Below are positions 38,239-62,389 of a stretch of 64,000 nucleotides of DNA, piece after piece (positions within the stretch are counted from its first letter, which is position 1; every line of letters begins with the position of its first letter). The notes beneath the pieces were generated by a model. It was not told the origin of the DNA. It worked only from the letters and a program-made list of their open reading frames with translations, and ran no database searches. A program made the position numbers and the translations under genes. Source of the DNA: Dehalococcoidia bacterium (GTDB lineage: Bacteria > Chloroflexota > Dehalococcoidia > Lucifugimonadales > Australimonadaceae); assembly GCA_965208625.1 (NCBI GenBank), contig OZ242348.1, positions 1,309,567 to 1,373,566 of the forward strand, given 5' to 3'.

Positions 38239-38239
38239 C

Positions 38240-38977: not shown

Positions 38978-38983
38978 GGTGGC

Positions 38984-39736: not shown

Positions 39737-39791
39737 AAGCCCCACCCCGGTCGTTTCTCTCCTGTCAGCGCGGCGGATTCTAGCAGTGCGG

Positions 39792-41248: not shown

Positions 41249-41305
41249 CGCCGCGCAGAAACCTCCCCGAAGGCCCGGTCTAGCTCGGTCATCCAAGGAG
41301 CGCAG

Positions 41306-42733: not shown

Positions 42734-42799
42734 CCGGTCGTTCAGAACCGAGGCGCGCCTGAGAGGCACGCCCAATCCGAATCAAGGGAGGGATCCAAG

Positions 42800-44047
42800 A
42801 TGAAGTGGACCAAGCTAAGCATGGTATTGATAGCAGGCATCGCGGGTGCGCTGTTGCTCGTGGCGTGCGGGAGCGACCCCACGGCAACGCCAACGCCGGC
42901 ACCACAGCCCACCGCGACGCCAACGCCGGCACCGGTGGCGCAACCCACCGAAGCGCCCGCGCCCGACCCGACAGCGACCCCGACGCCCGACGCCATGGCG
43001 GCGATCGAGGCGGAGAAGGCAGAGTTGATCGCGGCAGCCCAGGAAGAGGGCGAGTTGCAGGCATTCTTCTGCTGCGACCTGGGCGACGGGACCGCGGACC
43101 ACATCCAGGGATTCGAGGACGAGTACCGGATCAGGGTGGTCTTCTCCGGCGGCTCCTCCCGTGAGCAGGCGCCAAAGGTGCTCGCCGAGCGCGAGGCAGG
43201 GCAGTACACGCTGGACGTCTGGTCAGGTGGATTGAACCCCGCGATCCCCACGTTGATCCCCGCAGGTGTTCTCCAGCCGCTCAAGCCGCTGCTCTTCTTC
43301 CCTGAAGTGCTGGACGAGTCGGCGTGGTACGACAACCGGCTCCACTGGTTCGACCAGCCCGGCAACGAGTACGTGGTCGGCTGGAACGGCTCCGGAAGCA
43401 CAGCCGGCATCGCGTACAACACCGACCTCGTGGATCCGATGGAGATACAGTCGTTCTGGGACCTGCTCGACCCGAAGTGGAAGGGGAAGATCATCGCGCG
43501 CGACCCGCGTGAGGTCGGGAGCTCGGGCACCACAGCCTTCTACTACATGAACGAACAGATGGGTGGAGAGTGGCTCCAGCGGATGATGACGGAGATGGAC
43601 ATCACACTGACAAGCAACGCCCGGCAGGCTGCGGAGCAGTTGGCGCTCGGCAAGTTCCACCTCTGCATGTGGGCGTGCGGCAGGGAAGTGCGAGCACTGG
43701 AGGGTGAGGGACAGCCGGTCGACGACGTGTTCCCGCACATCCTCGAGGAGGGGGCGAGCATCAGCCCCGGCGGCGGCGCCTTCTACGTGCTGGACAGCCC
43801 ACCGAACCCGAACGCCCAGAAGCTCTTCGCGAACTGGTTCCTGAGCCGCGAAGGGCAGATCTTCGCGCAGAAGGCGAGCGGTTCGCAGTCGCTCCGCACG
43901 GACATCCCGCTGGACGGCGTTAACGAAGCGAGTATCCGCAACCCTGACGTCGACTACTTCATCCTGGGGAGCCAGACCGACTACCAGGACCAACTCGAAG
44001 CGGCGCTCACGGTCGTCCGGGATGCGCTGGCCTCGGTAGGCAAGTAA
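42800..44047 (+). CDS. ABC substrate-binding lipoprotein (AfuA/FbpA-like)
   Basis: Lipobox LVAC, PT linker, AAAQEEGEL, YNTDLV, WDLLDPKWKGKI, PNAQKLFANWFLSREGQ. Confidence 0.85.
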   Translation: MKWTKLSMVLIAGIAGALLLVACGSDPTATPTPAPQPTATPTPAPVAQPTEAPAPDPTATPTPDAMAAIEAEKAELIAAAQEEGELQAFFCCDLGDGTADHIQGFEDEYRIRVVFSGGSSREQAPKVLAEREAGQYTLDVWSGGLNPAIPTLIPAGVLQPLKPLLFFPEVLDESAWYDNRLHWFDQPGNEYVVGWNGSGSTAGIAYNTDLVDPMEIQSFWDLLDPKWKGKIIARDPREVGSSGTTAFYYMNEQMGGEWLQRMMTEMDITLTSNARQAAEQLALGKFHLCMWACGREVRALEGEGQPVDDVFPHILEEGASISPGGGAFYVLDSPPNPNAQKLFANWFLSREGQIFAQKASGSQSLRTDIPLDGVNEASIRNPDVDYFILGSQTDYQDQLEAALTVVRDALASVGK

Positions 44048-44095
44048 ACAGCCCCGCTCCGGGAGGAGCGGCTGCGGGCTGTGCAGGGCAAATAG

Positions 44096-45904: not shown

Positions 45905-45925
45905 GCTGAGCGAAGGGCCGATCGA

Positions 45926-47398
45926 TCACAGGTTCGGGAACGGCAGGATGTCCCCGTATTTCTTCATCACGCGCTGCCTGAGCTCTTTGGGGCTTCGGCT
46001 TACTCCCGGGAATTGGTCCCTGCGATGGAACGGTCTGACCGCGTAGTAGACCGCGAGGCTGTTGGTGTGGTCGCCGGACTCCTTCTTGTCGGGCCGCGCT
46101 GAGACCAGCGGGTCCAGTGGCGTGCTCCACATCCCTCTCAGGATCTCGATGTCGGTCTCCGGGTCGCAGCGCGTCGTCATGGCCCAGAGCACCTCTTTCA
46201 GGTCCTCCGGATCGATGTCCTCGTCAACGACGACGATCCAGCGTCCGTTGCGCGTGTTCGCCGCGGCGGCCATGGCGGCCTGCTTCGCATGACCGGGGTA
46301 CTGCTGCTTGATGGCGATAACCCGCATGTACGCGAAAGGCGTGCCCACTGCCACGACGTGCGAGACACCCGCGCGGGCAAGGTCGGCCGCGCCGCCGCGG
46401 CCGGCGCCCATGGGAAGACCTGTTTGTCGCGCGCCGGGCCACATCGGGGCCTGGCTCAGGATGATGGGGTTGTTGCGGAAGTAGACCGCCTTCACGCGGA
46501 TGACCGGCTGCGGTTCGCCGGTGCCGAGCGTGCCGCCGGAGTAGTAGCCGGGCCACTCCCCGAAGGGACCTTCATCCCGCGCCTCCTCCCACGGCGGAGG
46601 GACTTCGCCTTCGATGGCGATCTCCGCATGAGCAGGGATGGGCAGACCGGTGATGGGACCCTTGATGACGTCGACCGGCCTTCCGCGCAGGCCACCAGCG
46701 TGGTCCAACTCCGATTCTCCCCAGGGAGAGCGTCCGTGGGACGCCATCCACGTGAGCGGGTCGGTGCCGAAGGTAGCGACCACCGGACAGGCCTCGCCCT
46801 TCTCCCAGTAGCTGTTGCAGATAAGCCGGCCCTGCTGGCCGGGGCTCATCCAGAGCCCCAGTGTGTTCTTGTCGTGGACCTCCATCCGATAGGTGCCCAT
46901 GTTGACGTAGCCGCTCTCCGGGTCCTGGTTGATGAGCGAGTCGCCCGTGCCGATGTAGCGCCCGCCATCCGAGGCGTGGTACCGGGGAACGGGGAAGCGC
47001 CAGAGGTCGACTTCCTCGCCCTCCATCACGTTCTCCATCACGGGGCCGGCAGGAACCTCGTTCGGGGGAATCGGCTTGATCGCCCTGAGCCGCTGAGAGG
47101 CCAGCTCCGCCAGTTCGTCGCGGCTCTTGTCGACCGGTAACCCGAGCGCCAGCGCAGCCCGTTTGTACGACGCACCGACCAGCGACACCAGGCGGTAGCC
47201 CTCCGGGTACCCCTTCACCTTGTCGAAGATGAGCATGGGGGCATTCGGTATGGTTTCGGCTACCGCCTCAACGAGTGCCCCGAGCTCCTCATCCCAGTCG
47301 ACTCCTTCGATGACGTGGTAGTCATCGATCTCCTGACAAGCGGCCACGTACTCCTGCAGGCCGTCGAAGATCGGCCCGGTCGGTTCTGATGTCGTCAC
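45926..47398 (-). CDS. UbiD-family prFMN-dependent (de)carboxylase
   Basis: GGRYIGTG, NMGTYR, EGPFGEWPGYY, YPGHAKQA, VVVDEDID, WAMTTRCDP. Confidence 0.9.
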   Translation of the reverse strand: MTTSEPTGPIFDGLQEYVAACQEIDDYHVIEGVDWDEELGALVEAVAETIPNAPMLIFDKVKGYPEGYRLVSLVGASYKRAALALGLPVDKSRDELAELASQRLRAIKPIPPNEVPAGPVMENVMEGEEVDLWRFPVPRYHASDGGRYIGTGDSLINQDPESGYVNMGTYRMEVHDKNTLGLWMSPGQQGRLICNSYWEKGEACPVVATFGTDPLTWMASHGRSPWGESELDHAGGLRGRPVDVIKGPITGLPIPAHAEIAIEGEVPPPWEEARDEGPFGEWPGYYSGGTLGTGEPQPVIRVKAVYFRNNPIILSQAPMWPGARQTGLPMGAGRGGAADLARAGVSHVVAVGTPFAYMRVIAIKQQYPGHAKQAAMAAAANTRNGRWIVVVDEDIDPEDLKEVLWAMTTRCDPETDIEILRGMWSTPLDPLVSARPDKKESGDHTNSLAVYYAVRPFHRRDQFPGVSRSPKELRQRVMKKYGDILPFPNL

Positions 47399-47432
47399 GA
47401 GGTGCTCCTTTCAGCACTGGTGGTGCGAACAC

Positions 47433-48683
47433 TTACCGGTGGGTGCTGGTCGCCAGCTCGCGGGCCGCGTCGTTCTCCCAGTAGCGATGCCAGTCGACGG
47501 AAGAGGGGAGCACGATATCGTTCCGGACGTAGATGCCCAGGTTCTCGGAACGCTTCTCTGGGTCACGGATGACGTGGACCGGGTCCTGCCCCTCCTGTAC
47601 GTCGCGCACAGCCTTCAGCAGCATCCGTCTAGCCGCCGCGATGGCCATGTCCGTGTATCCAAGGTGCTCCGTGGTGCGGTTCTGGATGGCGCCTTCGCCC
47701 TGGGTGGCCCACGTATCGTGGACGACGAAGTTCTGCCCCATCCCGATGAACTCCCTGTTCTTCATGGACTCGCGGTCCTGCCGGTAGCGGTTCGACTCGT
47801 TGCGGATGAGGCGGAAGTCTTCACCGATCTCTTCGGAGCGGGCATTCTGCTGCGGACGTATGGGCTGCGTACGGTTGAACCGGATGCCGTAGCGCCAATG
47901 GTGCGTGTCGTCGATGGGAACGTGCCAGTTGATGCTGTACCCCTCGGCGTCGCCCGCCACCGCCGCCAGGTTGGGCATGACGAAATTCGTGACCCTTACG
48001 TAGCTGTTCTCCTCGTCCACTTTCCGCACCGCGTAGATGCGGATGCCGAAGTCCGTGTCCTCCAGTTCGAGGTGAGGCGCGGTAACACGGGCGTTCAGGG
48101 TCTGATTAAGATCGCCCGAGCGGCTCAGGCGGTGGAGGAACGAGAGGTGCTGGGGGTCGATGTTGCCTTCGTTGCCCTGGAGATAGTTGCAGTCCTGGAA
48201 CACCTTGTAGACGGAGCGCTGCCCAGGCGGCACGTCGAACGCTTCGTAGGGAGGCAACGACGGCGGTTCGCCGCCACCGAGGTAGGCGAAAACCAGATCG
48301 CCACGCTCAGCTACCGGGTAGGCCAGGTGCAGCACCTTGTCCTTGAAAGTGCTGCCTTCCGGTTCGCCGGGTTGCTCCAGACAGTTGCCGTGGATGTCGT
48401 AGAGCCAGCCATGGTAGAGGCACCTCAACCCTCCGTCCTCTATCCGGGCGTAGCTGAGGTCGGCTGCACGATGGGCGCAATGGATGCCAAGCAGGCCGAT
48501 GCGGTCGAACTGATCGCGGAAGAGTACGAGGTCTTCGCCGAGAAGGCGCACTGGAAGGGGGGCGCTACCCGGAAGAATCTCAGAGCTGAGCGCAACGGGC
48601 TGCCAGTAGCGGCGTATGAGCGCACCGCCGGGCGTCCCGGGACCAACCTGGGTCAGAAGGTCGTTCTCCTCGCGGGTCAGCAT
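47433..48683 (-). CDS. Rieske oxygenase alpha subunit (paralog of 39792-41078)
   Basis: Start MLTREENDLL. CAHRA...CLYHGW, EGNIDPQHLSFLH, EHLGYTD. Confidence 0.92.
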   Translation of the reverse strand: MLTREENDLLTQVGPGTPGGALIRRYWQPVALSSEILPGSAPLPVRLLGEDLVLFRDQFDRIGLLGIHCAHRAADLSYARIEDGGLRCLYHGWLYDIHGNCLEQPGEPEGSTFKDKVLHLAYPVAERGDLVFAYLGGGEPPSLPPYEAFDVPPGQRSVYKVFQDCNYLQGNEGNIDPQHLSFLHRLSRSGDLNQTLNARVTAPHLELEDTDFGIRIYAVRKVDEENSYVRVTNFVMPNLAAVAGDAEGYSINWHVPIDDTHHWRYGIRFNRTQPIRPQQNARSEEIGEDFRLIRNESNRYRQDRESMKNREFIGMGQNFVVHDTWATQGEGAIQNRTTEHLGYTDMAIAAARRMLLKAVRDVQEGQDPVHVIRDPEKRSENLGIYVRNDIVLPSSVDWHRYWENDAARELATSTHR

Positions 48684-48842
48684 GCTCCACCCCCAACGAC
48701 ATCGTGAGGTTACCCAGCGAAAGAAGCGCAAGCAAGTCGAGCCAGCGCATGGCGCTGCGAGAGGACTCCTGTCTCGCGCAGTTGTTACCGACTCTCTCGC
48801 GGCTTATGATGACGCCAACCTGGGTACCTTTGGAGTTGTCCT

Positions 48843-49958
48843 GTGAGCAGTGAGGGGTCCTCGCTCCAAGAGCTCCGTATCTCCGCCGACTCCCACATGG
48901 GCGAGCCGCCCGATCTCTGGGAGAAGGAACTTCCCCTGAAGTTCCGTTCGCGAGCCTTGCGCACCCACGAAAGGCCCTTCGAGACCAATCACCTTCTGCG
49001 CGCGGGTTGCTGGGACCCCTATGAGCGGCTGAAGGACCTCGCGCTGGATGGCGTCAGCGCCGAGGTGCTCTACCCGACCCTCGCCGTCCCGGCATGGCTC
49101 ATCGACGACCAGGAACTCCAGGAAGCACATCTGCGCGTCTACAACGACTGGCTGATCGACTTCTGCAGGGTAGCTCCACACCGCTACTGGGGATTGGGCA
49201 TGGTCTCGTTGTGGAACGTGGATCATGCCATCCAGGAGATGCAACGGTTCATCGATGCCGGGCTGCGGGGCGTCGACATCTGGATCGCGCCGCCGGAGAG
49301 CTTGCCATACAGCGACCAACACTACGAGCCCTTCTGGGCCGCCGCCGAGGAGCTTGGCGCGACGGTCAATATGCACATCAACGGACGCGCCGAGTCCCGC
49401 GAGCGCGACCCCGCAGGCATCCCCATACACTCGATCAATGGGCACAAGAACGACGCGATGAACTCGCTGCTGCACATCATCGCCTCCGGGGTGCTCGAGC
49501 GTCACCCGCGCCTGAACGTCGCGGTGGCGGAGGCAGGCGCGGGCTGGGTCCCCTTCTGGCTTCAGGAGGCCGACCACTACACGATGAGCCGCCGCAGCAC
49601 CCTGTCCATGCCGCCCAGCGAGTACTTTAAGCGGCAGGTCTACTGCACCTTCATCAGCGACGCCGTCGGCGCATATCTCCTGCAGGACTTCGGCCAGGAC
49701 AACTTCATGTGGTCCAACGACTATCCTCACCCCGCATGCACGTGGCCCGACTCCAATATCCTCATCCCCGAGGAGTTAGGAGGACTCCCTGCCGAGGTGC
49801 AAGAGAAGGTTGTCTGGCGCACGGCGGCCAGGGTCTACAACAATGGCGAGCCTCCTGCTCCGCCCGACCCGTCCGAGGACCGCACCGAAGTCGAGAACTG
49901 GCTGGAGCACCACCGGGACTTCGGAGCCAGCGCGCGTCCGAAACACCGCACCGCCTGA
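48843..49958 (+). CDS. Amidohydrolase family 2 protein
   Basis: ISADSH, WDPYERLKD, VNMHI, AEAGAGW, WSNDYPH. Confidence 0.9.
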   Translation: MSSEGSSLQELRISADSHMGEPPDLWEKELPLKFRSRALRTHERPFETNHLLRAGCWDPYERLKDLALDGVSAEVLYPTLAVPAWLIDDQELQEAHLRVYNDWLIDFCRVAPHRYWGLGMVSLWNVDHAIQEMQRFIDAGLRGVDIWIAPPESLPYSDQHYEPFWAAAEELGATVNMHINGRAESRERDPAGIPIHSINGHKNDAMNSLLHIIASGVLERHPRLNVAVAEAGAGWVPFWLQEADHYTMSRRSTLSMPPSEYFKRQVYCTFISDAVGAYLLQDFGQDNFMWSNDYPHPACTWPDSNILIPEELGGLPAEVQEKVVWRTAARVYNNGEPPAPPDPSEDRTEVENWLEHHRDFGASARPKHRTA

Positions 49959-51789: not shown

Positions 51790-51854
51790 GGCTACAAGTG
51801 CAGCAGGCGTAAGTGGCCCTAGAGTATCGCGATGGTGCACAGGAACAGGGGCTG

Positions 51855-53897
51855 ATGACTCTTTCCACAGAGGGTGTGACGACCCAGACGCTGAGCTTGC
51901 CTGAAGAGCTCATCCTGATGCTCCTCAACGAGGAGAGCGGCTACTTCCACCAGGTGCCCGGCTGGGACCTGAACTGCACTGTCGCCGGCGCCGTACTCGC
52001 GGAACTCTCCCTCATGGGCCGCATCGACACGGACGTGGAATCCCTGTTCATCGTCGACCGGAGTGAGACGGGCGACCCCGCACTGGACCCTATCCTCAAG
52101 GAGATCGCGGACGAACCCGTCCGGCACAACACCCAGTACTGGATCGAACGACTCGCGCCCCGCGCAGAGGCCATCGTCGATCTGACGCTGGACCGCCTCG
52201 TTGACCTGAACATCCTGGAACACCATGACGGCGAGTTCTGGACGTTGTCCCGCACCGTCGTGCAGGCAGAACTCTCCAACACCTCCTCAACAGGCACAGC
52301 GGCCCAATTCGTCAGGACGCGCATCAGCAAGGTAATCCTCAACAACGAGATTCCCGATCCGCGAGACGTCATCATCATCGCCCTCATCGATACATGCGAC
52401 GTCTTCCGCTTCATGTTCCAACTCGACGACGAGATAGAGCAGCGCATCCAGGCCATCTGCAGGATGGACCTGATCGGCCGGTCCATCGCCGAGGCAGTCT
52501 CTCAGAACATCGCCGGTCCGCTGCTTCAACGTTCCGCCTTCACCAAGAAGATCCCGACCGTTTCGCTGCGCAAGATGCTGTTCAGTCCTCACCTTCGCAG
52601 TGGGAATATCGCCGCGCTCTTTGCGAACCTCGCAAAGGAGTACGGGCCGGTGTTCAAGATACATCCACCATTCAGGAAGCCGATGATCTTCCTCGCCGGG
52701 ACGGACACGAACCACTGGGTGCACCGGCACGGGCGCATGTACCTGAGAGCGAAGGACTACTTCTCCGACTTCGAGAAGGTCTACGGCGCGAACGGAGTGA
52801 TGCCTTCGATGGACGGCGCCGATCATTTCCGGCTTCGTAAGTCCATGTCACCGGCGTACTCCCGCGGGAGACTGGAAGGACAGTTGAACATCCTCTACCG
52901 CCATGCCCGGAACCACATGGCCGGCTGGAATGTTGGAGACGCCTACCCTGCGACGAGCATGAGCAGGCGGATGATCAACGCGCAACTCTCGCCGCTCTTC
53001 GTCAGCGTCGATTCCCAGGACATCTTCGACGACCTGGCGAAGTACAAGGAGCGGGCGCTCCTCACGCACATCATGAAGGCTCTCCCCAAGTTCATGCTCC
53101 GCACTCCGGGCATGAAACGCCGGGCAAAGGCCGTGGATACCCTCTTGGAACGGGTCCAGAGCGTCCATACACCAGCGCAACGGGCCGGTTCCCCGCGGGA
53201 CCTCGCGGACGACTGGCTCAGCCTGCACGCAAGCGATCCGCAGTTCGTGCCGGAGACGACCCTGCGCTTCCAGCTGTCGGCGGCGTTGATCGCCAGCGTG
53301 TACCTTGGCGACGCGTTCAGTTTCGCGCTCTACGCCATGGCGTCGCAGCCCGATCTCTACCGGGAGATTCAGCGTGAAGCCGATGCTCTCTTCGATAACG
53401 GCGACCCCGACGGCGAGGAATTCACCCTGCAGGCGATAGACGTCACGCACCGCTTCCTTATGGAGACCGTGCGCATATACCCCATCGTCCCGATGTCCAT
53501 ACGGAACGTGATGAATACGTGCGTGGTGGAGGACTACGAACTGCCGGTGGGGTCACAGGTCTTCATCGCCACGACCGCGACGCACTACATGAGCGACATC
53601 TTCCCCGAACCTTTCTCCTTCGACATCGATCGCTACAAGGCGCCACGCAACGAGCACCTCAGTCCCGGGTACGCCCCCTACGGGCTGGGCACGCACACCT
53701 GTCTCGGCACCCGGTGGATGGAGCTGCAGTTGGCCATCAACGTGCTGATGATCGCGCACTATTTCAACATCGAAGTGTTCCCCTCGAACTACAAGCTCAA
53801 GTTCAACCCGATCCCGTCGATGAAGCCGAGCAAGAAGCTGAAGTTCCGCATCGCCGAGCGGCGGCGTGAGATACCCCTGGTCGCCTGGCAACACTGA
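51855..53897 (+). CDS. GPP34 (GOLPH3/Vps74)-domain cytochrome P450 fusion
   Basis: N-terminal LSLPEELILMLL, AGAVLAEL..GRI, TGDPALD (GPP34). C-terminal ETVR (ExxR), FDIDRY and heme loop PYGLGTHTCLG. Confidence 0.88.
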   Translation: MTLSTEGVTTQTLSLPEELILMLLNEESGYFHQVPGWDLNCTVAGAVLAELSLMGRIDTDVESLFIVDRSETGDPALDPILKEIADEPVRHNTQYWIERLAPRAEAIVDLTLDRLVDLNILEHHDGEFWTLSRTVVQAELSNTSSTGTAAQFVRTRISKVILNNEIPDPRDVIIIALIDTCDVFRFMFQLDDEIEQRIQAICRMDLIGRSIAEAVSQNIAGPLLQRSAFTKKIPTVSLRKMLFSPHLRSGNIAALFANLAKEYGPVFKIHPPFRKPMIFLAGTDTNHWVHRHGRMYLRAKDYFSDFEKVYGANGVMPSMDGADHFRLRKSMSPAYSRGRLEGQLNILYRHARNHMAGWNVGDAYPATSMSRRMINAQLSPLFVSVDSQDIFDDLAKYKERALLTHIMKALPKFMLRTPGMKRRAKAVDTLLERVQSVHTPAQRAGSPRDLADDWLSLHASDPQFVPETTLRFQLSAALIASVYLGDAFSFALYAMASQPDLYREIQREADALFDNGDPDGEEFTLQAIDVTHRFLMETVRIYPIVPMSIRNVMNTCVVEDYELPVGSQVFIATTATHYMSDIFPEPFSFDIDRYKAPRNEHLSPGYAPYGLGTHTCLGTRWMELQLAINVLMIAHYFNIEVFPSNYKLKFNPIPSMKPSKKLKFRIAERRREIPLVAWQH

Positions 53898-53917
53898 GGA
53901 GTACGGAAGACGAAGGT

Positions 53918-54961
53918 TTACAGGGGCTTGCGCGCCAGAAAGCAGTACAACGGCGTGAAGACCCCGGCCCTGCCTCCTGCGACATAGGCATTGGCCGTAC
54001 CGTCCATCAGTCTGACGACGTCGGCGGACCCCTTCGGGAACACGCCCAGCGCCTCGGCCAACCGGGATACCCCGGTGTACGCCTTGCGGCCCAGCGGAGT
54101 CCTGCGCAGGGTGTTGCCCAGCGTGCCGCCCCTGGTCTCCATAGGCCGGTACCACGGGGGGGAGGAGTGTGACCCTCCTCCATCGAGAGCACGGTCCACG
54201 CCTTCGATGACCTGGAACCCCGCCGATTCGAGCGCCCGGTTCACCTCGTTCATCGTTGCGATGTCCTTGAGCGCGATGCCCTGCATCAGGTCGTTCTTCA
54301 TGGACTGATGCCGACTGTCGCTGGGATCGAACCTGTCCGTCATGCACATCTCCTGGCCCCAGAAAAGGGCGCCAGGTTTCAGCACGCGGTAGATCTCCGC
54401 AAACGCGCCCGCCTTGTCCGGCGCATGGCACGTCGATTCGATCGCGTAGCCCCGGTCGAACGCGTCGTCAGGGACAACGCTCATGTCCATGAAACTGCAC
54501 GCGATGTAGTCGACCATGTGATCGAGTCCCGCCTCAGCAGTCAACGACCTCGCCCTCTCCAACTGGACTTCGCTGCTATTGATCCCGACGACCCTGACTC
54601 CCGCCTCCGCTGCGACGCGGCGCATGGGGCCACCGACCCCGCAACCGACGTCGACCACCGTCATGCCTTCCTGCAATTCCAGTTTGGCGATCATGAGCCG
54701 CTGGTGCCGCGCCTGGGAGTGCTCCAGGCTCTCGCGAGACGACAGCGGCGCGAAGTGGAGGGACTCGCTCCAACCGAACACCATGAACTCATTGCAGAGG
54801 TCGTAGTATTCCCTGACAGTTTCGACGTGGTCGTAGCCCGCCGGACCGGCGTCCTCCACGTTCGCTCTGTCCATCCACCTGTCGAAGTGCTTGACGCGGT
54901 GGCGGACGTCCGACCCGCGGTACGCGGCCTTCAGCCTGTTGGGTAGTTCGCGAAGTTGCAT
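53918..54961 (-). CDS. Sterol 24-C-methyltransferase-like SAM methyltransferase (ERG6/SMT family)
   Basis: SMT regions: YYDL...GWSESLHFA, VDVGCGVGGP, YAIESTCHAP, YRVLKPG..., WYRPM and C-terminal FTPLY..LARKP. Confidence 0.88.
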   Translation of the reverse strand: MQLRELPNRLKAAYRGSDVRHRVKHFDRWMDRANVEDAGPAGYDHVETVREYYDLCNEFMVFGWSESLHFAPLSSRESLEHSQARHQRLMIAKLELQEGMTVVDVGCGVGGPMRRVAAEAGVRVVGINSSEVQLERARSLTAEAGLDHMVDYIACSFMDMSVVPDDAFDRGYAIESTCHAPDKAGAFAEIYRVLKPGALFWGQEMCMTDRFDPSDSRHQSMKNDLMQGIALKDIATMNEVNRALESAGFQVIEGVDRALDGGGSHSSPPWYRPMETRGGTLGNTLRRTPLGRKAYTGVSRLAEALGVFPKGSADVVRLMDGTANAYVAGGRAGVFTPLYCFLARKPL

Positions 54962-54972
54962 GAGCATTCCTT

Positions 54973-57456
54973 CTACGACGAGCCCTGTCCCCGCTCGTGG
55001 CTCTGATGTATGCCCTCTATCGCCACGTCGAGCTCGGCCCACTGGCGCTCGACCATGGAGCGCAACCGCATGTTCTGGTACGCGCCCCAGACCACCATCG
55101 CTGGCAGCACCAGCAGCACGGAGACGACCAGGGAGTATACGATGGTGATGGTCGCCGTGATGCCGAACTGTTGAGAAGCAAGCAGCGGCGAGGCGATCAG
55201 CACTCCGAATCCCAGCGCGGTCGTCATCGCGGAACCCAGCAGCGCCGAACCCGTGGTCGCGAGCGTCCGTATCGCCGCACTCTCCGGGTTGCGCGAGCGG
55301 GTGAATTCCTCACGGTATCGATGGATCACGTGGATGGTGTAGTCCACGCCAATCCCTATCGAGAGCGCCGTGATGATCGACGTGACGAGTGAGTACGGGA
55401 TACCCAGCAGCGCCATCGTGCCCAGCACTGAGATCAGGACGAGCACGATGGGCCCGACCGCGACGACCGCCAGCGCCGGTTGGCGCGCCGTCAGCCAGAA
55501 GAAGACAGCGAGGACGGTGAGGGCCGCCGCGATAGTGGTGCTGATCGCCTCCGTCTGACGATCTGTGATCGCGTCCGTAACCCCGATCGAGACGACGGTC
55601 TCCGAAAGCACCGTGAGGGCGGAATCGTCTCCAGGCCAGAGCGCTTCAAGGTCGCCCTGCAGCATCTTGGTTGCTCCCGGATCGTTCGAGTAGGTTGGAA
55701 ACTGCAACAGGATGGTGTCGATGCCGTTCGGATCGTTGACCAGGCCGTGGGTGACTGCGGGTTCCCTCTCTCCGAGCTTGTCCAGGATCTCCTGCATCAA
55801 GGCCGGATCGAGCTGCACTCCCGAGGAAGCTTCGCCGAAGAGCGCCGCAAGCTCACGGTCGTAGTTGTCGCCGGGCTGCCCGCTGTCGGTGGTCCAATCG
55901 TTGAGGAGCGACTCGTACGACGCCAGGAGCGGCCCTGCTGCTGCATCCGGACGGCGCTGCTCGTCCTGGAACGCGACCCTGAGGTCTTGCAGGTTAAGGA
56001 GGGTGCGGGTCTCCGTAGCCTCGGCCTTCACCAGCACACTGGCCATCTCCGTCGAACCGCCGACGGTTGCGTCCAGCGTCTTCATGTCAGCCACGATGGT
56101 CCCGCCCCTGGGAAGAACGTCCCGGATGCTGAACTCCGACTTGAGGTCGGTAGCCGCGAATCCCAGCCCAACCGTGATTGCAACGACGACGATGATGTAC
56201 GGCGCCGGCTGACGCGTAACTCTCCTTCCGAGCACCTCTGCTAGCCGCGGGATGCCGGGCAGCGCATTCGAAAGTGGGCGAGGCTGCCGCAACGTGCCGC
56301 GTGCCTCGCGACGCCGGTCGAGGATGGTCCGCGCAGCGGGGACCAGCGTCAGCATCACGATCAGGCTCAACCCCACACCCATCCCTGCGACAACGCCGAA
56401 GTCTCCGATCACACCTATCGGCGAAAACAGGGTCGCCAACAGGCTCACAATCGTGGTGACTGCGGCGAGCATCAGCGGGACCGCGACGTTCCGCAGACCG
56501 ATCTGCACCGCTCGGGCGACGGGTTCGCCTTCGAGCCGCTGCTCCCGGTAGTGAGAGATTGCCTGGATCGCATAGTCCACCGTGAGGCCGATGATGATGA
56601 CGGGCACCATCGCAGTGAGCGAGCTGGGAGGGCCTATCACGCCGAGTCCGTCCGGGCCAAGCCAGCCCTCGGCGCCGACAACCCACATGATCACGACGAT
56701 CAGACCCAGCAGCGTCAGCAACATGTCCGACAGGGTGCGTGTGAAGAGCAGGAGCAGACCGGCGATCAGCAAGAGCGCCAGCCCGATCAGTGGCCCCATC
56801 CCCTCCTCAGTGGCTTTCTTGTAAGCATCCTCGATGACCGCCGACGACAGGCTGCTCACACGCGACGCACCCTCGTCCGCTGCAGCCAACTCGCTGATCC
56901 TCCGTTCGGCATCGTCAACGCGCTCGTCTCCCGTGTCGCGCAGGCGCACGATGGCAATCGCAACGAGCGTGCCGTCGGTGTCGGTGCCAGTCATCTCAGC
57001 GAGCGCCTCCCCTACTCCGGGGATGTCGCGTGCAGAGTCGATCTGTTCCTGCGTGACCGACTCGAAACTGTCCACTTGGAGCACGGCGCCGATCAGCGAC
57101 GAGGGTGCAACGACAGAGGTTCCAGGCGCCAACAATTCACTGACGCCCGGGGCCCGGACAATCTCATCGAGCAGGCTATCCATCTGGGAGAGGCCGCCGG
57201 GTGTGAGCGCCTCCCCGCGAAAGAGGAGTGTGACAACAATCACTTCGCCGGAGTCCCCGAACCGGTCATCTATCTCTTGTGTTGCCTCAGCGATGGGATG
57301 GCCAGGAGGGAGGAAGGCAACACTTGCGCCTTCCGTCGGCGGCAGACGTCTATCCGCCCCCGAAACCATTACGACGGTAACGATGAGGAGGACGAGGAGC
57401 GTGAACCACGGGCGAACCGTGACCAGCCAACTCAGCCTGCCGAGTATGTTGCTCAT
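54973..57456 (-). CDS. MMPL/RND-family lipid (sterol/hopanoid-type) transporter
   Basis: Two RND halves with GLTVDYAIQ and GIGVDYTIH motifs and two large extracytoplasmic loops. Confidence 0.88.
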   Translation of the reverse strand: MSNILGRLSWLVTVRPWFTLLVLLIVTVVMVSGADRRLPPTEGASVAFLPPGHPIAEATQEIDDRFGDSGEVIVVTLLFRGEALTPGGLSQMDSLLDEIVRAPGVSELLAPGTSVVAPSSLIGAVLQVDSFESVTQEQIDSARDIPGVGEALAEMTGTDTDGTLVAIAIVRLRDTGDERVDDAERRISELAAADEGASRVSSLSSAVIEDAYKKATEEGMGPLIGLALLLIAGLLLLFTRTLSDMLLTLLGLIVVIMWVVGAEGWLGPDGLGVIGPPSSLTAMVPVIIIGLTVDYAIQAISHYREQRLEGEPVARAVQIGLRNVAVPLMLAAVTTIVSLLATLFSPIGVIGDFGVVAGMGVGLSLIVMLTLVPAARTILDRRREARGTLRQPRPLSNALPGIPRLAEVLGRRVTRQPAPYIIVVVAITVGLGFAATDLKSEFSIRDVLPRGGTIVADMKTLDATVGGSTEMASVLVKAEATETRTLLNLQDLRVAFQDEQRRPDAAAGPLLASYESLLNDWTTDSGQPGDNYDRELAALFGEASSGVQLDPALMQEILDKLGEREPAVTHGLVNDPNGIDTILLQFPTYSNDPGATKMLQGDLEALWPGDDSALTVLSETVVSIGVTDAITDRQTEAISTTIAAALTVLAVFFWLTARQPALAVVAVGPIVLVLISVLGTMALLGIPYSLVTSIITALSIGIGVDYTIHVIHRYREEFTRSRNPESAAIRTLATTGSALLGSAMTTALGFGVLIASPLLASQQFGITATITIVYSLVVSVLLVLPAMVVWGAYQNMRLRSMVERQWAELDVAIEGIHQSHERGQGSS

Positions 57457-57508
57457 GGTATGTACCCCAGTGCTGCATGGTGGAGGTCGTCGAAGCCGGT
57501 TCGAGTGG

Positions 57509-58585
57509 TCATTCTACAGTCTCGCCAGATGTGACCGGGAGTGCCATATCAGGAGCGCACGGCTCGGGATAGAACTGGGTGCAGTAGGCGCGAAAGGTCA
57601 TGATCTCGCCGTCGGAGCGAGCGAGGCGTGGCAGGGAGCGGTACCGCTTGCGGCTCCAGATGATCACATCCCGGCGAACGTCCTGCTCCTGCTGCGGCGA
57701 GATGAACCTGTTCATCATCGGGGCGCGCCACCCAACCGGGAGGAACCCCAAGCCCGATATCCAGCGCTTCGGGTTGCGGATCTCCCGCACCTGCGAGGCC
57801 AGCGACAGATCGATAAGCGTGCCGTCGACAGGCGTCGCCAGCACCCACAGGCGCATATCCATGCCGATGGACTTCTCACGGATCTCCACGAACGAATATC
57901 CCAGCCCGAAGATATGAGTGTTGGTGGAGATGTCCAGGTTGAAGGGTAAGGCTCCGGCTATCTTGTAGTTGCGCCTGAAGTCGAAGTCGCTCCTGAGGTA
58001 AGCCCCGTCCACCGATACGTCCCCGGCGCGGTCCACGCTGCCGTACCCGTGGACGTAGCGCAGGTGGGCCAGGTCCACCGAGTTCTCCGTCGTCTCCTGG
58101 GGATGGCCGGGAAAGCGGAGGGTGCGTATCGAGATGGCGCTCCAGCCGGTCTGGTCTGCAAGGTCAGTGGGCAGGTGCCAATGAGCCGCCCGTCCCTCGA
58201 TCCCCCACCAGCCGAAGATGAGGCCGGCTATCTCCTGTGTCTCGAAGACGCGCAACCGCGCAGCCCTGGGCGGGGGAGCAAAGGGAGTGGCGACGCACTG
58301 GCCGGTTGCATCGTACTCGAAGCCGTGGAAGGGGCAGACGAGCCGACCGTCACGCACGCGCCCTCCGGCGTCGGGCCCCAGGTCGGAGCCGAGGTGCGGG
58401 CAGTAGGCCTCGGCAACGCAGACGCGCTCGTTCTCATCGCACCAAACAACGATGTTCTCCCCCATCCAGGTCTTCCAGATGAGCCTCGCCTTTTGCATGG
58501 CCTTGCGGCTTCCGATGAAGTACCAGCCCTCGGGAAACGGGGAAGGCAACGGGACGTTGTCTGGCTCTACTTGCCTGGTTGTCAT
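57509..58585 (-). CDS. Steroid-type Rieske oxygenase (Neverland/DAF-36 cholesterol 7-desaturase or KshA-like)
   Basis: PFPEGWY, AYCPHLG, CPFHG, ENSVDLAHLRYVH, and C-terminal DVIIWSRKRY..PRL...DGEI..FR.YC.QFY typical of the KshA/Neverland clade. Confidence 0.82.
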   Translation of the reverse strand: MTTRQVEPDNVPLPSPFPEGWYFIGSRKAMQKARLIWKTWMGENIVVWCDENERVCVAEAYCPHLGSDLGPDAGGRVRDGRLVCPFHGFEYDATGQCVATPFAPPPRAARLRVFETQEIAGLIFGWWGIEGRAAHWHLPTDLADQTGWSAISIRTLRFPGHPQETTENSVDLAHLRYVHGYGSVDRAGDVSVDGAYLRSDFDFRRNYKIAGALPFNLDISTNTHIFGLGYSFVEIREKSIGMDMRLWVLATPVDGTLIDLSLASQVREIRNPKRWISGLGFLPVGWRAPMMNRFISPQQEQDVRRDVIIWSRKRYRSLPRLARSDGEIMTFRAYCTQFYPEPCAPDMALPVTSGETVE

Positions 58586-58701
58586 CGAGCGGCACTCCCT
58601 GTCCGGACCGCTCGGTGTGGACAGTTCTCTCCAGCAGTCCGGACACTACTAGGATACGAGATTCGTTCCCGAATCCCACCCTCGTGCGCGCACCGGACAC
58701 T

Positions 58702-60198
58702 TCATGTTTCAGGCAGGGATGTTGGCCAGCGGCTGCCTTCAGGCGAAGCCTCCTCTTCGGCGTCTTCCACTCTCATCAACAGGGCCGGCAGGATGGCGAC
58801 CAGAGCAAGGAACCCCGAGATCATGAAGAGGTTCTGGAACACAGTCACTCCCGCTTCGATCAGGGGAGCCTCGGTCTCCTCGAACGTCGAGCCGATCGTC
58901 ACGTCAGCGGTCAAGCTGTAGAAGCGCTCGATACCCCAGGCGGACAAGGCCGCGAGCCCCAGCGCCATCCCCACCATGCGCGACGCGGTGATCAGTGACG
59001 CCGCCGCGCCCCAATAGTGACTGGGTGCTGCGCTCAACGCGCTGACGCCGATGGGCGGGATGACCAGCCCGAACCCCAGACCTGCCATGACCAGGGGCAT
59101 AGTCAGCCTGAGTTCCTCCACTTCCGTCTCCCAGCCGCTCATGAACAGCAGACCCGTTCCTATGAACGCAAGGCCGGTTATGCACACCGTCCTTACTCCC
59201 GTCCAGCGTAGGATGTAGCCGCCAACCACCGCCCCCACCGGAATAGCGGCCGTAAGGCGGACCAGGTGAAGGGCGCTCTCCCAGGCCCTCTTCTCCATGA
59301 CAGTGCCGGCCATGAGCGGCACAGCCACCAGCGAGATGATCAGGGCAACCCCCACCAGGAACTGGGTGATGTTGGAGGACAGGAACGCCCTGGACGTGTA
59401 CAGGAAGGATGCCAGTAGAGGCTGGACGGTGCGTCGCTCCAACAGGACCAGCAGGAGAACCAGGCCGACCCCCAGGGCTATCAGGACAAACGGGAAGAGG
59501 GACTCTCCGGAGAAGATGGCTCTCTGAGACAGGCCGATACTGAGAACGGTGAGGGCCGCCCCGAGCACAAGCGCTCCGAAGTAGTCCATCTTCGCAGCAG
59601 GATTGGCACGGTTCGGCAGGACGGCCAGGAGCGCTATCAGGAAGAGGCTCTGCGGTATGTCGAGCCAGAATATCCACCGCCAGCCCAGCAACTCGATGAT
59701 GGCTCCCCCATAGAGGGGCCCCAGCACCGACCCGGCTTCAGCCGAGGCTGCCACAAGTCCAATCGCCAGTCCCCTTTTCTCCGGCGATACAGCGGCCACA
59801 GCCATGGCGAGGCCTATGGGGACCGTGGCGCCGCCTCCGAAAGCCTGGACCACCCTAGCGGATACCACCCACTCGAAGTTTGGCGCAAGCGCCACGAACG
59901 CCGACCCGATGGAGAAGACGATCAGCGCTGCGTGGAACATCCTGACGCGGCCGTAGACGTCGGACAGACGCCCCGCCAGCGGCATCGCCACGGTGTAGCT
60001 GATCAGGTACCCCGTTACGATCCAGGACGCCCTGTCCAGGTCCGTAAGGGGGATCTCCAGGTCCACCATCACGGCAGGCAGGGCGGCGACCACCACTGTC
60101 TGGTCAAGGGCAGTCGAAAACACCCCCAGGCAGATGATCCCCAGCACAACCGACTGGGAAGATCTCAGCGATTGGAGGCGAGACCCGGCAGTGTTCAC
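58702..60198 (-). CDS. MFS transporter, 14-TM DHA2 type (P55/Rv1410c-like)
   Basis: LDQTVVVAALP, WIVTGYL.SY...MPL.GRLSDVYGR, GSVLGPLYG, WRWIFW. Confidence 0.85.
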   Translation of the reverse strand: MNTAGSRLQSLRSSQSVVLGIICLGVFSTALDQTVVVAALPAVMVDLEIPLTDLDRASWIVTGYLISYTVAMPLAGRLSDVYGRVRMFHAALIVFSIGSAFVALAPNFEWVVSARVVQAFGGGATVPIGLAMAVAAVSPEKRGLAIGLVAASAEAGSVLGPLYGGAIIELLGWRWIFWLDIPQSLFLIALLAVLPNRANPAAKMDYFGALVLGAALTVLSIGLSQRAIFSGESLFPFVLIALGVGLVLLLVLLERRTVQPLLASFLYTSRAFLSSNITQFLVGVALIISLVAVPLMAGTVMEKRAWESALHLVRLTAAIPVGAVVGGYILRWTGVRTVCITGLAFIGTGLLFMSGWETEVEELRLTMPLVMAGLGFGLVIPPIGVSALSAAPSHYWGAAASLITASRMVGMALGLAALSAWGIERFYSLTADVTIGSTFEETEAPLIEAGVTVFQNLFMISGFLALVAILPALLMRVEDAEEEASPEGSRWPTSLPET

Positions 60199-60947
60199 GA
60201 CCCTGAGGCTGTCTCTGGAAGTTGGATGTCGACAGGGGCGTTGATCTCACTGATGGTTACCAGCCGCGTCGTTTCCGGGGCGTCCTCGTCGTAGAGCCTG
60301 CCGTCTATCCTGAGCTGCCGCAGGTCATACGAGACCTCGTCGACCCAAACGGATAACGTGATCGCATGACCGGGGTCCACATCCGTGATGAGGCCCGACA
60401 TATCCTCGGAAACGATATCCCCATCTACACGGATAGCCTGGCCGCCTCCTACGGACTCCCGCCCGGTGATGGCGACGTTCTCGATGATGGGCAGTATCTC
60501 GCTCAACGTGACGCCTATCCCTCCGAAGTTGAAGGGGACCTGGTCCAGCGGCAGGGGAAGCCACAACGCGTCTGAGGAGAACTGTATGTACGCCTGCTCT
60601 CCCACCGCCAGCATGCCGACCTCCACGAATCCAAGGCCGGGGTTCACCAGCTCCACCACCATCCTGAAGCTGTCGGGTGTTTTGACCTCTCCTTCCACAC
60701 TCTTCAGGGCCATCTCGAAGAATTTCGCGCCCGATTCCGTCTCGTCGATCATCTGGAACTTCGCCGTCGACAGTGCAGCCAGCTGTTCCGCCGCACCGGA
60801 GAGCACCTCATCCACCGACAACTCGGGGGTCGGCGTGGGTTCTGACTCACACGCAGCTGCCAGGAAGAGGAACCCAAACGCCAGCACGGTGATCGAGATT
60901 CCGCGACCCACGGCCATTCGGATGGATGGAGCGAAAGCAATCATCAT
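60195..60947 (-). CDS. LppX/LprAFG-family lipoprotein
   Basis: Lipobox LAAAC, beta-sheet lipid-carrier pattern (EGEVKTPD, GRESVGG, VWVDE, INAPVDIQLP). ATGA-type overlap with the MFS gene. Start is approximate. Confidence 0.75.
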   Translation of the reverse strand: MMIAFAPSIRMAVGRGISITVLAFGFLFLAAACESEPTPTPELSVDEVLSGAAEQLAALSTAKFQMIDETESGAKFFEMALKSVEGEVKTPDSFRMVVELVNPGLGFVEVGMLAVGEQAYIQFSSDALWLPLPLDQVPFNFGGIGVTLSEILPIIENVAITGRESVGGGQAIRVDGDIVSEDMSGLITDVDPGHAITLSVWVDEVSYDLRQLRIDGRLYDEDAPETTRLVTISEINAPVDIQLPETASGS

Positions 60948-61006
60948 GTGAGGCACGGTACCACCCGCAAAAGACGCCGGGCAAGCACCCTCAGGAGCAT
61001 TCAGCG

Positions 61007-62389
61007 CTACGCCTTTCTGAACCGCCAGCCGTACATGATGCTCCCGTAGTAGTTGAACGACCGCCTCGCCGCAGGGTCGTCGAAGGGATAGTCGGCGCCC
61101 ATCTGTCTCGCAGTGGCGAGCCCGGAGACGAAGCAGGTCTCCTGGCTGTTGACCAGGGTGTGAGCACCGCAGTGCCACGTTCGGCTCTTGCCCTGGATGC
61201 AGCGGAACAGATTGACGAGCACTACGACGTGGCGCACGTCATGGACGATGTGCTGGAACCACCAGCGCTTCACAATCTTCCGCTCATCGATGGGACTGAT
61301 CGGGTTGTAGGTCACCAGGCACGGTTTGTCAGACCGGTTAGCCCATGGCTGCTGGTTGTGCATGATGTACGTGATCTCGTAGTTGTCCGGTCTCGCGCCG
61401 TACTGCTCGATGTGATTGCTCCGAGTGGTCAGGGCCTTCACCTCGTTGTCGGGAAGCACAGAGGAATCTGAGTGGACGACCGTGTGGTTGTGCAGTTCGC
61501 TCTCGTAACGTATCGAGGAGAGGATGTAGCGTTCGAGGAACGTGGGTTTGTCGAGGATCATCAGCGTCTGGTTCGCGTTGCATGCGAAGATCACGTCGTC
61601 GAACGCCTCCTGCACACCGTCGTGGTCCTCGACAACGACGCCATCCGTCTGCCGGTACACCTTGCGGACAGGTCGGCTCAGGTAGATCTTGTCCCGGAAG
61701 TCTGCCGACAGGTTCTCGTAGATGCGGCGCGTTCCCTGGTCCCACGTCTGCATGGGCGTAGCGGTCTCGATATCGAAGAACTCGAGATACCTCGAGAAGA
61801 GCGCCGCAGGCATATCGAAGACGTTCGTCGCCATCAGGAAGTTGACGAACATCGGCTTCAGTACCTTGTACCTGAAGTCTCCCGAGAACCCTCCCAGGTT
61901 CAATACCGTCCCCATGCTGACGTAGTTGAACGGGTTGAGCGCGTTCAGACACTTGGACTGCGTACGCGTCAGCCAGCCGAACCAGCGCAGACGCTTCAGC
62001 AGCCGTTGGAACTTCGCGATCTCTTGTTGCAGCTGTTCCCTGATGTCGGAATCGAAATCGTGGGCGTAGACCTGGTCGCCGTACTTCACGCTGTAGCTGA
62101 ACCTGGTATCGACCAGTTCGATGCCGAACTTCTGCATCAGCAACAGGATGTGGTCATATACGGATGGGATGCAGGCGGTGACGGAGATGTCGAACGGGAT
62201 CGAGCTCCCGTCATCCTGCGGCATATCGGCTGTGACCGCGTTGCCGCCGATCTGTGCCTGGGCCTCGAACAGCCGGAAGTCGAAGCGGTCCGGGTGATGG
62301 TGCAGCGCCCACGCGGCGCCCAGTCCTGAAACACCTCCACCCACGATGGCGATACGCCGCGGCGTTGTCCCTGTCACCCCGGTTGCCAT
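61007..62389 (-). CDS. FAD-dependent oxidoreductase (COG2907-like; lipid desaturase/amine oxidase superfamily)
   Basis: IAIVGGGVSG, FEAQAQIGGNA, FDDVIFAC, IQGKSRTWHCGA..NSQE..FVSG. Confidence 0.8.
   Translation of the reverse strand: MATGVTGTTPRRIAIVGGGVSGLGAAWALHHHPDRFDFRLFEAQAQIGGNAVTADMPQDDGSSIPFDISVTACIPSVYDHILLLMQKFGIELVDTRFSYSVKYGDQVYAHDFDSDIREQLQQEIAKFQRLLKRLRWFGWLTRTQSKCLNALNPFNYVSMGTVLNLGGFSGDFRYKVLKPMFVNFLMATNVFDMPAALFSRYLEFFDIETATPMQTWDQGTRRIYENLSADFRDKIYLSRPVRKVYRQTDGVVVEDHDGVQEAFDDVIFACNANQTLMILDKPTFLERYILSSIRYESELHNHTVVHSDSSVLPDNEVKALTTRSNHIEQYGARPDNYEITYIMHNQQPWANRSDKPCLVTYNPISPIDERKIVKRWWFQHIVHDVRHVVVLVNLFRCIQGKSRTWHCGAHTLVNSQETCFVSGLATARQMGADYPFDDPAARRSFNYYGSIMYGWRFRKA

Follow-up and report, generated by a model that had tools for sequence, protein, structure and literature searches.

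We describe a seven-gene cluster in a Dehalococcoidia bacterium (GenBank assembly GCA_965208625.1, contig OZ242348.1) that recurs as a unit in sponge-associated relatives and likely handles a sterol-type triterpenoid, including the possibility that the compound is made by the cell itself. The cluster lies at positions 51813-62389 of a 64,000-nucleotide stretch of DNA (the window), which corresponds to C1:1309567-1373566 of the single-contig genome G000. It encodes a fusion of a GPP34 domain to a cytochrome P450, a methyltransferase resembling sterol C-24 methyltransferases (SMTs), an MMPL transporter, a Rieske oxygenase, a major facilitator superfamily (MFS) transporter, a lipoprotein and a flavin adenine dinucleotide (FAD)-dependent oxidoreductase. 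With a confidence that falls a little short of even, we propose that the cluster is a conserved, mobile module of SAR202-type sponge Dehalococcoidia that tailors and moves a sterol-type triterpenoid of outside origin. The proposal builds on which genes are present, how they are conserved and co-occur, the lipoprotein fold and a lack of matches to oxidosqualene cyclase (OSC) and squalene epoxidase, and from these we infer the substrate, every reaction and the direction of transport.

The GPP34-P450 fusion gene is on the plus strand (51813..53897; 694 residues) and is convergent with a run of six minus-strand genes. The run begins with the gene for the FAD-dependent oxidoreductase of amine-oxidase fold (61007..62389; 460 residues) and continues with those for the LprG/LppX-like lipid-binding lipoprotein (60195..60917; about 240 residues, including signal peptide and lipobox), the DHA2-type MFS transporter (58702..60198; 498 residues), the Rieske non-heme iron oxygenase of the KshA_C type (57509..58585; 358 residues), the MMPL/HAE3-type resistance-nodulation-division (RND) transporter with sterol-sensing-type transmembrane domains (54973..57456; 827 residues) and the SMT-like class I S-adenosylmethionine (SAM) methyltransferase (53918..54958; 346 residues). 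With corrected gene starts, the intergenic gaps along this run are 89, -4, 116, 52 and 14 nucleotides. A preliminary description of the stretch had recognized seven contiguous genes of lipid- or sterol-handling families, and the open reading frame (ORF) list and Pfam searches agree with it, in that every ORF is in place and carries the domains named. The fusion ORF opens at 51813, and the start given earlier, 51855, is an in-frame ATG at codon 15. The length of the methyltransferase was set at 346 residues because its homologues span 343-348 residues. The longest ORF of the lipoprotein, which reaches 61178, is over-extended; a start near 60917 yields a signal peptide and a lipobox Cys, the latter conserved in homologues.

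A scan with the methyltransferase, using one genome per species, gave at least 575 relatives, and the best 80 loci were examined for genes within 10 kb of the methyltransferase, which is 73-92% identical to that of the window across these species-level genomes. The fusion was found in 67/80 of these loci, the MMPL gene in 62/80, the Rieske gene in 57/80, the FAD enzyme in 43/80, the MFS gene in 26/80 and the lipoprotein in 25/80. Families from the flanks of the window reached 7/80 (NHL) and 6/80 (TenA and orf345, each). When all ORFs of the 80 loci were clustered without supervision, exactly these seven families recurred (76, 64, 59, 49, 34, 22 and 21 loci), the next family was present in 9 loci, and no reductase gene was among the seven. 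The SMT, fusion and MMPL genes occurred together in 60/80 loci, the five core genes in 37/80 and all seven in 17/80, with 27 different arrangements of gene order and orientation. The methyltransferase stood alone in 10/80 loci, some of which are second copies within one genome. A second type of SMT, 42% identical to that of the window and with a stronger Sterol_MT_C match, was present in 4/80 loci; at locus L089, from a genus without a cyclase, this other type occupies the same cluster. The expectation that these families would co-occur across SAR202 relatives was thus borne out, and the data support the seven genes as a real, conserved functional unit of sponge-associated Dehalococcoidia. As a separate observation, two loci (L034 and L077) come from metagenome-assembled genomes (MAGs) labeled Alphaproteobacteria; their methyltransferases are 75-76% identical to ours and are accompanied by fusion, Rieske and FAD genes, which reflects either a mislabeled bin or a recent transfer.

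The habitat of these bacteria agrees with a sponge association, as had been suspected from the DNA. The closest locus (L005) is labeled as a SAR202 cluster bacterium and shares 92-100% identity over the cluster proteins, and the remaining relatives are labeled as Dehalococcoidia or Chloroflexota MAGs. Parts of the stretch were found in 20 sequencing runs from 12 studies, 6 of which are labeled sponge metagenome; among the 24 runs listed, none contained RNA data.

In order to examine the genomic company of the cluster, a fixed sample of 251 genomes of the class was divided into 39 genomes with an SMT and 212 without; related genomes are present in this sample, so that the counts overstate independence. 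GPP34 was found in 39/39 SMT-positive and 22/212 SMT-negative genomes. A KshA_C Rieske protein in the score range of the cluster (55-93 bits) was found in 35/39 and 0/212, respectively, while a different type (104-149 bits; family f56, one of them in the unpublished genome G244) was found in 0/39 and 8/212. A full-length ERG4/ERG24 homologue was present in 23/39 SMT-positive genomes, including our own, and in 1/212 SMT-negative genomes. None of the remaining genomes of the window's family (0/5) or order (0/8) has the methyltransferase domain. No cyclase match of any kind was detected in 17/39 SMT-positive genomes, most of which are assembled as one contig and are 92-100% complete; when G059 (87% complete) and G063 (in which the SMT is a fragment) are dropped, the cyclase-less count is 15/37. 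ERG4/ERG24 is present in 10 of the 17. The cluster does not require a cyclase.

The evidence that most favors sterols comes from two relatives in which paralogues of the fusion and the MMPL transporter are linked to an OSC. In G148 (L088 8411-16377), genes for a flavoprotein resembling squalene monooxygenase (SMO), an OSC, an MMPL transporter (split into two ORFs) and a GPP34-P450 fusion are arranged head to tail, and in G214 (L087 9339-17952) the MMPL and GPP34-P450 genes come after a gene in which SMO and OSC are fused. The cyclases of both score 708-755 bits as OSCs versus 276-290 bits as hopene cyclases. The MMPL paralogues are 49-60% identical to that of the window and the fusion paralogues 55%, and in a tree of 50 fusion proteins the OSC-linked fusions form the sister clade of the window's. 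In the genus of G148, eleven genomes carry the methyltransferase cluster and lack any cyclase. The SMO-OSC-MMPL-GPP34-P450 operon looks like a minimal sterol-type cluster.

Genome G000 (a single contig of 3.30 Mb, 95.8% complete) has only two cyclase matches, a full gene at C1:2217402-2219345 and a fragment at C1:491956-492120. Both lie outside the window, in keeping with the earlier statement that the window holds no cyclase. The full gene encodes a squalene-hopene cyclase (SHC), scoring 755 bits with the equivalog model (cut-off 431) versus 240 bits as an OSC. The fragment (plus strand, locus L002) is 94 residues long, matches SQHop_cyclase_C with 62 bits and contains an in-frame TAG; it is probably the remnant of a second cyclase gene. 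The genome-wide search for osc and shc proposed in the preliminary description was carried out by profile and found one SHC and no OSC in the genome, and no squalene epoxidase match was obtained among the 5 candidates scored. Since both OSC and squalene epoxidase, the pair that marks a de novo sterol pathway, are without a match, sterol synthesis by the known de novo route is not encoded. The methyltransferase is the sole Sterol_MT_C match of the genome and the Rieske oxygenase its sole KshA_C match. The ERG4/ERG24 homologue (379 residues, 129.8 bits; L145 8920-10059, minus strand, equal to G000:C1:2767919-2769058) has no match in control genomes (0/14). An IS30-like transposase (HTH_38 and rve domains; L145 7658-8662, minus strand) adjoins it, and for this reason the sequence suggests that the gene was horizontally acquired. 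A member of the fatty-acid-hydroxylase family, which includes sterol C-5 desaturases and C-4 methyl oxidases, was also detected (104.7 bits; L146 8326-9327, plus strand, equal to G000:C1:88325-89326); its neighbors have no informative Pfam annotation. No KstD, KshB or Hsa (HsaA-D) gene was seen in a Pfam scan of 20 of the approximately 52 window ORFs, in which no KstD or Hsa model was run.

The methyltransferase scores 58.7 bits with Sterol_MT_C (cut-off 21.7) and 66.5 bits with Methyltransf_11, so that it has the combination of class I SAM domain and Sterol_MT_C domain found in sterol C-24 methyltransferases. ERG6/SMT enzymes alkylate C24 of delta-24 sterols, and the motifs of their substrate region are YEYGWGxSFHF and IEATCHAP. 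Our protein contains FGW(S/G)ESLHFAP and YAIESTCHAP, and these are invariant or nearly so across 14 sequences. The Rieske oxygenase (Rieske, 60.8 bits; KshA_C, 71.2 bits) displays the CxH...CxxH motif of the 2Fe-2S center and the DxxHxxxxH motif of the mononuclear iron site in addition to its KshA_C domain. Its nearest solved relative is KshA (82 bits), and it scores 31 bits against the SdmA equivalog, for which the cut-off is 600. An assignment as a Neverland-like delta-7 desaturase, suggested earlier, is not supported. The FAD enzyme matches Amino_oxidase with 54 bits and NAD_binding_8 with 41 bits.

The fusion protein contains GPP34 (PF05719) at residues 29-230 (106.7 bits, covering profile positions 1-199 of 201) and the p450 domain at residues 262-675 (124.2 bits). 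The N-terminus of the fusion shows no signal peptide. The P450 domain keeps the heme Cys loop and the ExxR motif, and among solved structures it scores best with taxadiene 5-alpha-hydroxylase (78 bits) and CYP102-type enzymes, with CYP51 at about 60 bits. A search of the ESM Atlas with this part of the protein returned generic P450 clusters only. In the I-helix (window 53200-53330), ASV-YLG replaces AG(L/I)(D/E)T in both the window's clade and its OSC-linked sister; across the two clades the variant reads (A/T)(S/G)x-Y(L/G)G with a one-residue deletion, and it is seen in the fusions at L087 15934-17952 and L088 8411-10552. Distant clades of the fusion retain the AG(L/I)(D/E)T acid-alcohol pair. 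The loss of this pair suggests a non-standard oxygen activation and possibly unusual chemistry. The fusion thus has neither family-level similarity to sterol P450s nor their canonical I-helix pair, and the delta-22 (CYP61/CYP710-like) role once proposed for it is unsupported.

The PI4P (phosphatidylinositol 4-phosphate) pocket of GOLPH3/Vps74 is built from a Trp and basic residues, and an Arg has a role in PI4P binding. The GPP34 domain of the fusion aligns only weakly with Vps74 (E 0.0045, N-terminal half); in this alignment the Arg nine residues past the pocket Trp faces an Ala, with the Trp itself shifted by two residues. We hypothesize that the GPP34 domain anchors the P450 by binding membrane or lipid rather than acting as a secreted effector. 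A second, short GPP34 gene is present elsewhere in the genome (G000:C1:2384677-2385270, minus strand, locus L147; a 234-residue ORF, 151.8 bits), with no paralogues of the cluster genes within 8 kb of it.

The three transport components could be assigned to families with varying precision. The MMPL protein exceeds the Pfam cut-offs for MMPL (146.4 bits), Sterol-sensing (46.4 bits) and Patched (44.7 bits). Among NCBIfam models it scores 205 bits with HAE3 (cut-off 352), 102 and 74 bits with the HpnN models (cut-offs 752 and 1100), 34 bits with BstA (cut-off 1400) and 37 bits with the MmpL3 equivalog; it accordingly falls outside the hopanoid and sterol RND transporters as defined by the HpnN and BstA equivalogs. 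The MFS protein scores 148.5 bits with MFS_1 and 184 bits with the EmrB-type DHA2 model, below the cut-off of 230. The start of its gene overlaps the lipoprotein stop by 4 nucleotides, and the pair is kept together wherever the MFS gene occurs among the 80 loci. The lipoprotein matches LppX_LprAFG with 26.6 bits (cut-off 24), and its lipobox Cys is invariant in 15/15 homologues. An AlphaFold model of it (pLDDT 81.9, pTM 0.76) was compared with solved structures using Foldseek, and the top matches were LprG, LprF and LppX (E 2.7e-13; TM-scores 0.68-0.79), with 15-17% identity to LprG. This structural match confirms the weak Pfam assignment, and with its lipobox, fold and adjoining MFS gene the protein resembles LprG/LppX with a P55-type partner. 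A paralogue of the MMPL protein, 69% identical, is encoded at G000:C1:1024441-1026912 (minus strand; L150 8439-10919), where no sterol-related gene was seen and the neighbors are a cupin protein and two 4Fe-4S proteins, one of which has an HbpS-like domain. A further pair of MFS and LprG-like genes is located at C1:931371-933493.

Under the reading we prefer, sterol from the sponge host or from neighboring symbionts would partition into the bacterial membrane, and the SMT-like enzyme would methylate its terminal isopropylidene double bond (the delta-24 bond, in the case of a sterol). Oxidative tailoring would be the task of the KshA-type Rieske oxygenase, of the GPP34-P450 tethered to the membrane and of the LkcE-type flavoenzyme. 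The MMPL/HAE3 RND pump would then draw the lipid from the cytoplasmic membrane and pass it outward, and in a subset of genomes the LprG-like lipoprotein and the DHA2 MFS pump would also move it outward. A sterol made by the host or its other symbionts is the best single reading of the substrate, with roughly an even chance of being correct, because the genome is without OSC and squalene epoxidase. The import-and-tailor pathway put forward in the preliminary description therefore stands in part: a conserved sterol-type unit in a genome without an OSC is retained, host origin is kept as the best reading only, and uptake and the delta-7 and delta-22 steps are dropped. A narrower version of our reading, which we hold tentatively and with considerable doubt, is that cyclase-less symbionts alkylate and oxidize or desaturate the sterols of their host or neighbors and pump the products out, and that part of the unusual sterol pool of sponges is theirs. 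It would further imply, with the same reserve on our part, that the GPP34-P450 and MMPL pair is an unrecognized bacterial sterol-handling unit and that the fusion published as GPP34_L is a lipid enzyme and not a phagosome effector.

Several findings weigh against a sterol taken from outside. First, all three transport components (MMPL/HAE3, DHA2 MFS and LprG-like) belong to exporter-type families that move lipids outward, and no importer was found, although none was searched for. "Uptake", as the locus had been labeled, consequently has no support from homology. To judge from these families, export or envelope insertion of a tailored lipid would be a better fit, and export would also be compatible with symbionts returning modified sterols to the host. 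Second, the sole full-length solved relative of the FAD enzyme is the amine oxidase LkcE (108 bits), and neither the P450 nor the flavoenzyme is near any characterized sterol enzyme. Third, SMT-like enzymes of Botryococcus methylate squalene and botryococcene, so that a Sterol_MT_C domain alone is no proof of a sterol substrate. Fourth, ERG4/ERG24, SHC, OSC and fatty acid hydroxylase genes were each found within 10 kb of the SMT in 0/80 loci. Fifth, the association does not extend to distant fusions, which were sampled at 20 full-length metagenome-contig loci (some of them duplicates) encoding proteins 30-36% identical to the window fusion, with an outlier of 45% (L110). MMPL, Rieske and FAD genes were each present beside 0/20 of these and an SMT-like gene beside 1/20. 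A sterol-gene link as a trait of the whole fusion family was rejected on this basis, and the link is limited to one clade.

The remaining points against our reading concern squalene, and they form the case for the most serious rival. In this alternative, which we regard as less likely than our own reading, the lipid that is tailored and exported derives from the squalene of the cell itself and is either an acyclic squalene, methylated or partly reduced, or, in genomes with a hopene cyclase, a hopanoid. The SMT would methylate squalene at its terminal double bond or hopene at its isopropenyl group, after which the product would be functionalized by the oxygenases and brought to the outer envelope by MMPL, as an HpnN-like HAE3 pump, together with the LprG-MFS pair. 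Squalene-synthase-family genes (SQS_PSY) are present in 39/39 SMT-positive genomes versus 69/212 SMT-negative genomes. Had squalene synthesis been missing, this would have been taken as proof that the substrate comes from outside, and the argument failed on the same count. A squalene operon of the HpnC-HpnD-HpnE type is present in our own genome and in G181, which has no cyclase. An ERG4/ERG24-like gene adjoins such an operon in four cyclase-less g17 genomes (G005, G181, G196 and G239) and lies 13-16 kb from it in four more g17 genomes; at L148 5716-10629 (G181), for example, it stands beside HpnE-HpnD-HpnC in a genus without a cyclase match. This proximity hints at an endogenous squalene-derived substrate. 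Because SQS_PSY occurs in all 39 genomes and our own genome, with its hopene cyclase, makes hopene, an endogenous substrate is possible, and the isopropenyl group of hopene could in principle be acted upon by the SMT. The best named NCBIfam relative of the MMPL protein past the generic HAE3 model is also HpnN, at 102 bits.

Other observations argue against an endogenous lipid. Hopanoids were rejected as the general substrate, since 17/39 SMT-positive genomes are without a cyclase. The sister pair of MMPL and fusion is tied to OSC and not to SHC or HpnCDE. SQS, SHC and HpnE are absent within 10 kb of the SMT, save for one SQS-like (HpnC/D-like) gene in 1/80 loci; SMO, HpnE and the EcKL kinase were each found there in 0/80. 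SQS and SHC are common in free-living relatives that do not have the cluster, and in family f1 a cyclase is present in 4/5 genomes and an SMT in 0/5. The HpnN equivalog scores are far under their cut-offs.

An improbable rival is that the cluster serves in the detoxification or efflux of lipophilic metabolites of the host or neighbors, such as terpenoids, saponins or membrane-active sponge compounds, whether or not these are sterols. In such a system the oxygenases and the methyltransferase would alter the compound before two pumps expel it. The transporters are of exporter type, with the MFS protein scoring best against DHA2 drug-efflux models, and the P450 is unrelated to biosynthetic sterol P450s. 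The recurrent neighbors of the distant fusions are an EcKL/APH kinase (9/20) and an MFS pump (10/20), some of these loci being duplicates, which amounts to a modify-then-export layout. For a detoxification enzyme, however, it would be unusual to carry Sterol_MT_C and to be conserved at 73-92% identity over 80 species-level genomes, as this SMT is; the SMT also co-occurs with genes of the ERG4/ERG24 and KshA_C families, and the sister pair is linked to OSC. The distant loci in which a kinase of about 415 residues (ecdysteroid-kinase-like/APH) and a large MFS protein adjoin the fusion are L094, L096, L098-L100 and L102-L106.

It is very unlikely that the fusion is a host-directed, PI4P-binding effector that disturbs phagosome maturation (Ferreira et al. 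2025), with its neighbors forming an unrelated lipid operon: GPP34 proteins are reported in the main text of that study only from sponge and coral symbionts and not from free-living relatives (PMC11706023), and the fusion is on the strand opposite to the other six genes, but it stays beside the methyltransferase in 67/80 loci despite the 27 layouts, its paralogue shares strand and operon with SMO, OSC and MMPL, no N-terminal signal peptide is visible, and the pocket Arg position is an Ala in the weak Vps74 alignment.

Two components of the cluster, the SMT and the GPP34-P450 fusion, are already known and have each been published separately. In the main text of Brown et al. 2023 (PMC10070321), bacterial SMTs from sponge metagenomes, accepted at ≥30% identity and E ≤ 1e-50 to yeast ERG6, are reported to methylate desmosterol in vitro. 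Like ours, these enzymes combine a class I SAM domain with Sterol_MT_C and come from uncultured bacteria of demosponge metagenomes. In the same text 11/24 tested enzymes are not linked to an OSC, and methylation of host-acquired sterols is raised for a Chlamydiae MAG without other sterol genes. The gene clusters described there are, unlike ours, de novo ones (OSC, sdmAB and erg homologues), and the main text contains no mention of Chloroflex*, Rieske, P450 or transporter. The main text of Ferreira et al. 2025 (PMC11706023) reports GPP34-P450 fusions ("GPP34_L") only in sponge symbionts, including 80% of sponge-associated Dehalococcoidia genomes; these have the same domain architecture as the window fusion. 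A GPP34-Rieske fusion in two genomes of that study echoes the Rieske gene of our cluster. PI4P binding and control of phagocytosis are proposed there, and the main text does not mention sterol, methyltransferase or MMPL; in our data, the clade of the fusion is linked with SMT, MMPL and Rieske genes, and with OSC in relatives.

Sterol clusters from other sponge symbionts are built differently. The ERG24-CYP51-LSS clusters of Ircinia symbionts described in the main text of Kelly et al. 2022 (PMC9531527) are centered on OSC and CYP51, neither of which is present in our genome, and the msb cluster of Melophlus (PMC7074536) is likewise constructed around OSC and CYP51; both are read as de novo in these sources. 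In what is described of them, they share only the SMT with the seven-gene set. The same two sources describe sponge-symbiont MAGs, including Dehalococcoidia, as enriched in SMT1/ERG6, ERG24 and squalene synthase, often as scattered genes or doublets (PMC9531527, PMC7074536), and the ERG24-FDFT1 doublet of the Ircinia symbionts (PMC9531527) is the same doublet that we found in g17 genomes. Our literature search, whose coverage left out the supplements (Table 4 and Data 1 of Brown et al.; Fig. S11 of Ferreira et al.), found no description of the seven-gene cluster or of a link between GPP34-P450 and sterol genes. With supplementary context figures again outside this coverage, no description of an OSC-MMPL-GPP34-P450 operon was found either.

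For transport, the closest comparisons are HpnN, BstABC and LprG-P55, which move hopanoids, Methylococcus sterols, and mycobacterial glycolipids and triacylglycerides, respectively. Our cluster resembles these systems in having an RND pump of the MMPL/HAE3 kind and a lipoprotein-coupled MFS transporter beside lipid-modifying genes, and in the Foldseek comparison the lipoprotein model superposes on LprG bound to phosphatidylinositol mannoside (PIM) or triacylglyceride. It differs in that the window MMPL protein is far under the equivalog cut-offs of HpnN, BstA and MmpL3 (74-102, 34 and 37 bits). For a hopene-making bacterium with sterol-tailoring genes, the closest functional analogy is Tetrahymena, whose sterol desaturases include a Rieske-type C-7 desaturase. 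As far as the sources describe it, Tetrahymena makes the hopanoid-like tetrahymanol and takes up and desaturates sterols when they are available (PMC8079401, PMC9485055). It differs in being a eukaryote with non-orthologous enzymes and a C-22 desaturase of the fatty-acid-hydroxylase family, and no methyltransferase, gene cluster or dedicated pumps are described for it, unlike here.

Two separate findings on sponge symbionts, namely working sterol SMTs and exclusive GPP34-P450 fusions, meet in one conserved cluster of one clade. Should sterols be its substrates, the cluster would point to another, testable role for the "symbiosis gene" that is most widespread among sponge bacteria, and it would also provide candidate bacterial sterol transporters. 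Sponge symbionts would then be able to reshape sterols of others' making, and bacteria without a cyclase would shape sterol profiles, which affects the use of 24-alkyl steranes as animal or algal biomarkers; part of the side-chain-alkylated sterane record attributed to sponges could come from bacteria without a sterol pathway of their own. If squalene or hopanoids are its substrates instead, the cluster would define a new lipid family, made up of methylated triterpenoids, in a marine group of high abundance. Under either reading, these seven genes, with their clear limits, make a compact set to express in a heterologous host.

Upstream of the cluster, window positions 33435-49958 form a catabolic stretch typical of SAR202 according to Pfam, and none of its genes was conserved with the cluster when the ORFs of the 80 loci were clustered. 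It encodes hydantoinases A and B, two UbiD-family decarboxylases, an ABC solute-binding protein and permease, a LigXa-type Rieske oxygenase and an Amidohydro_2 enzyme.

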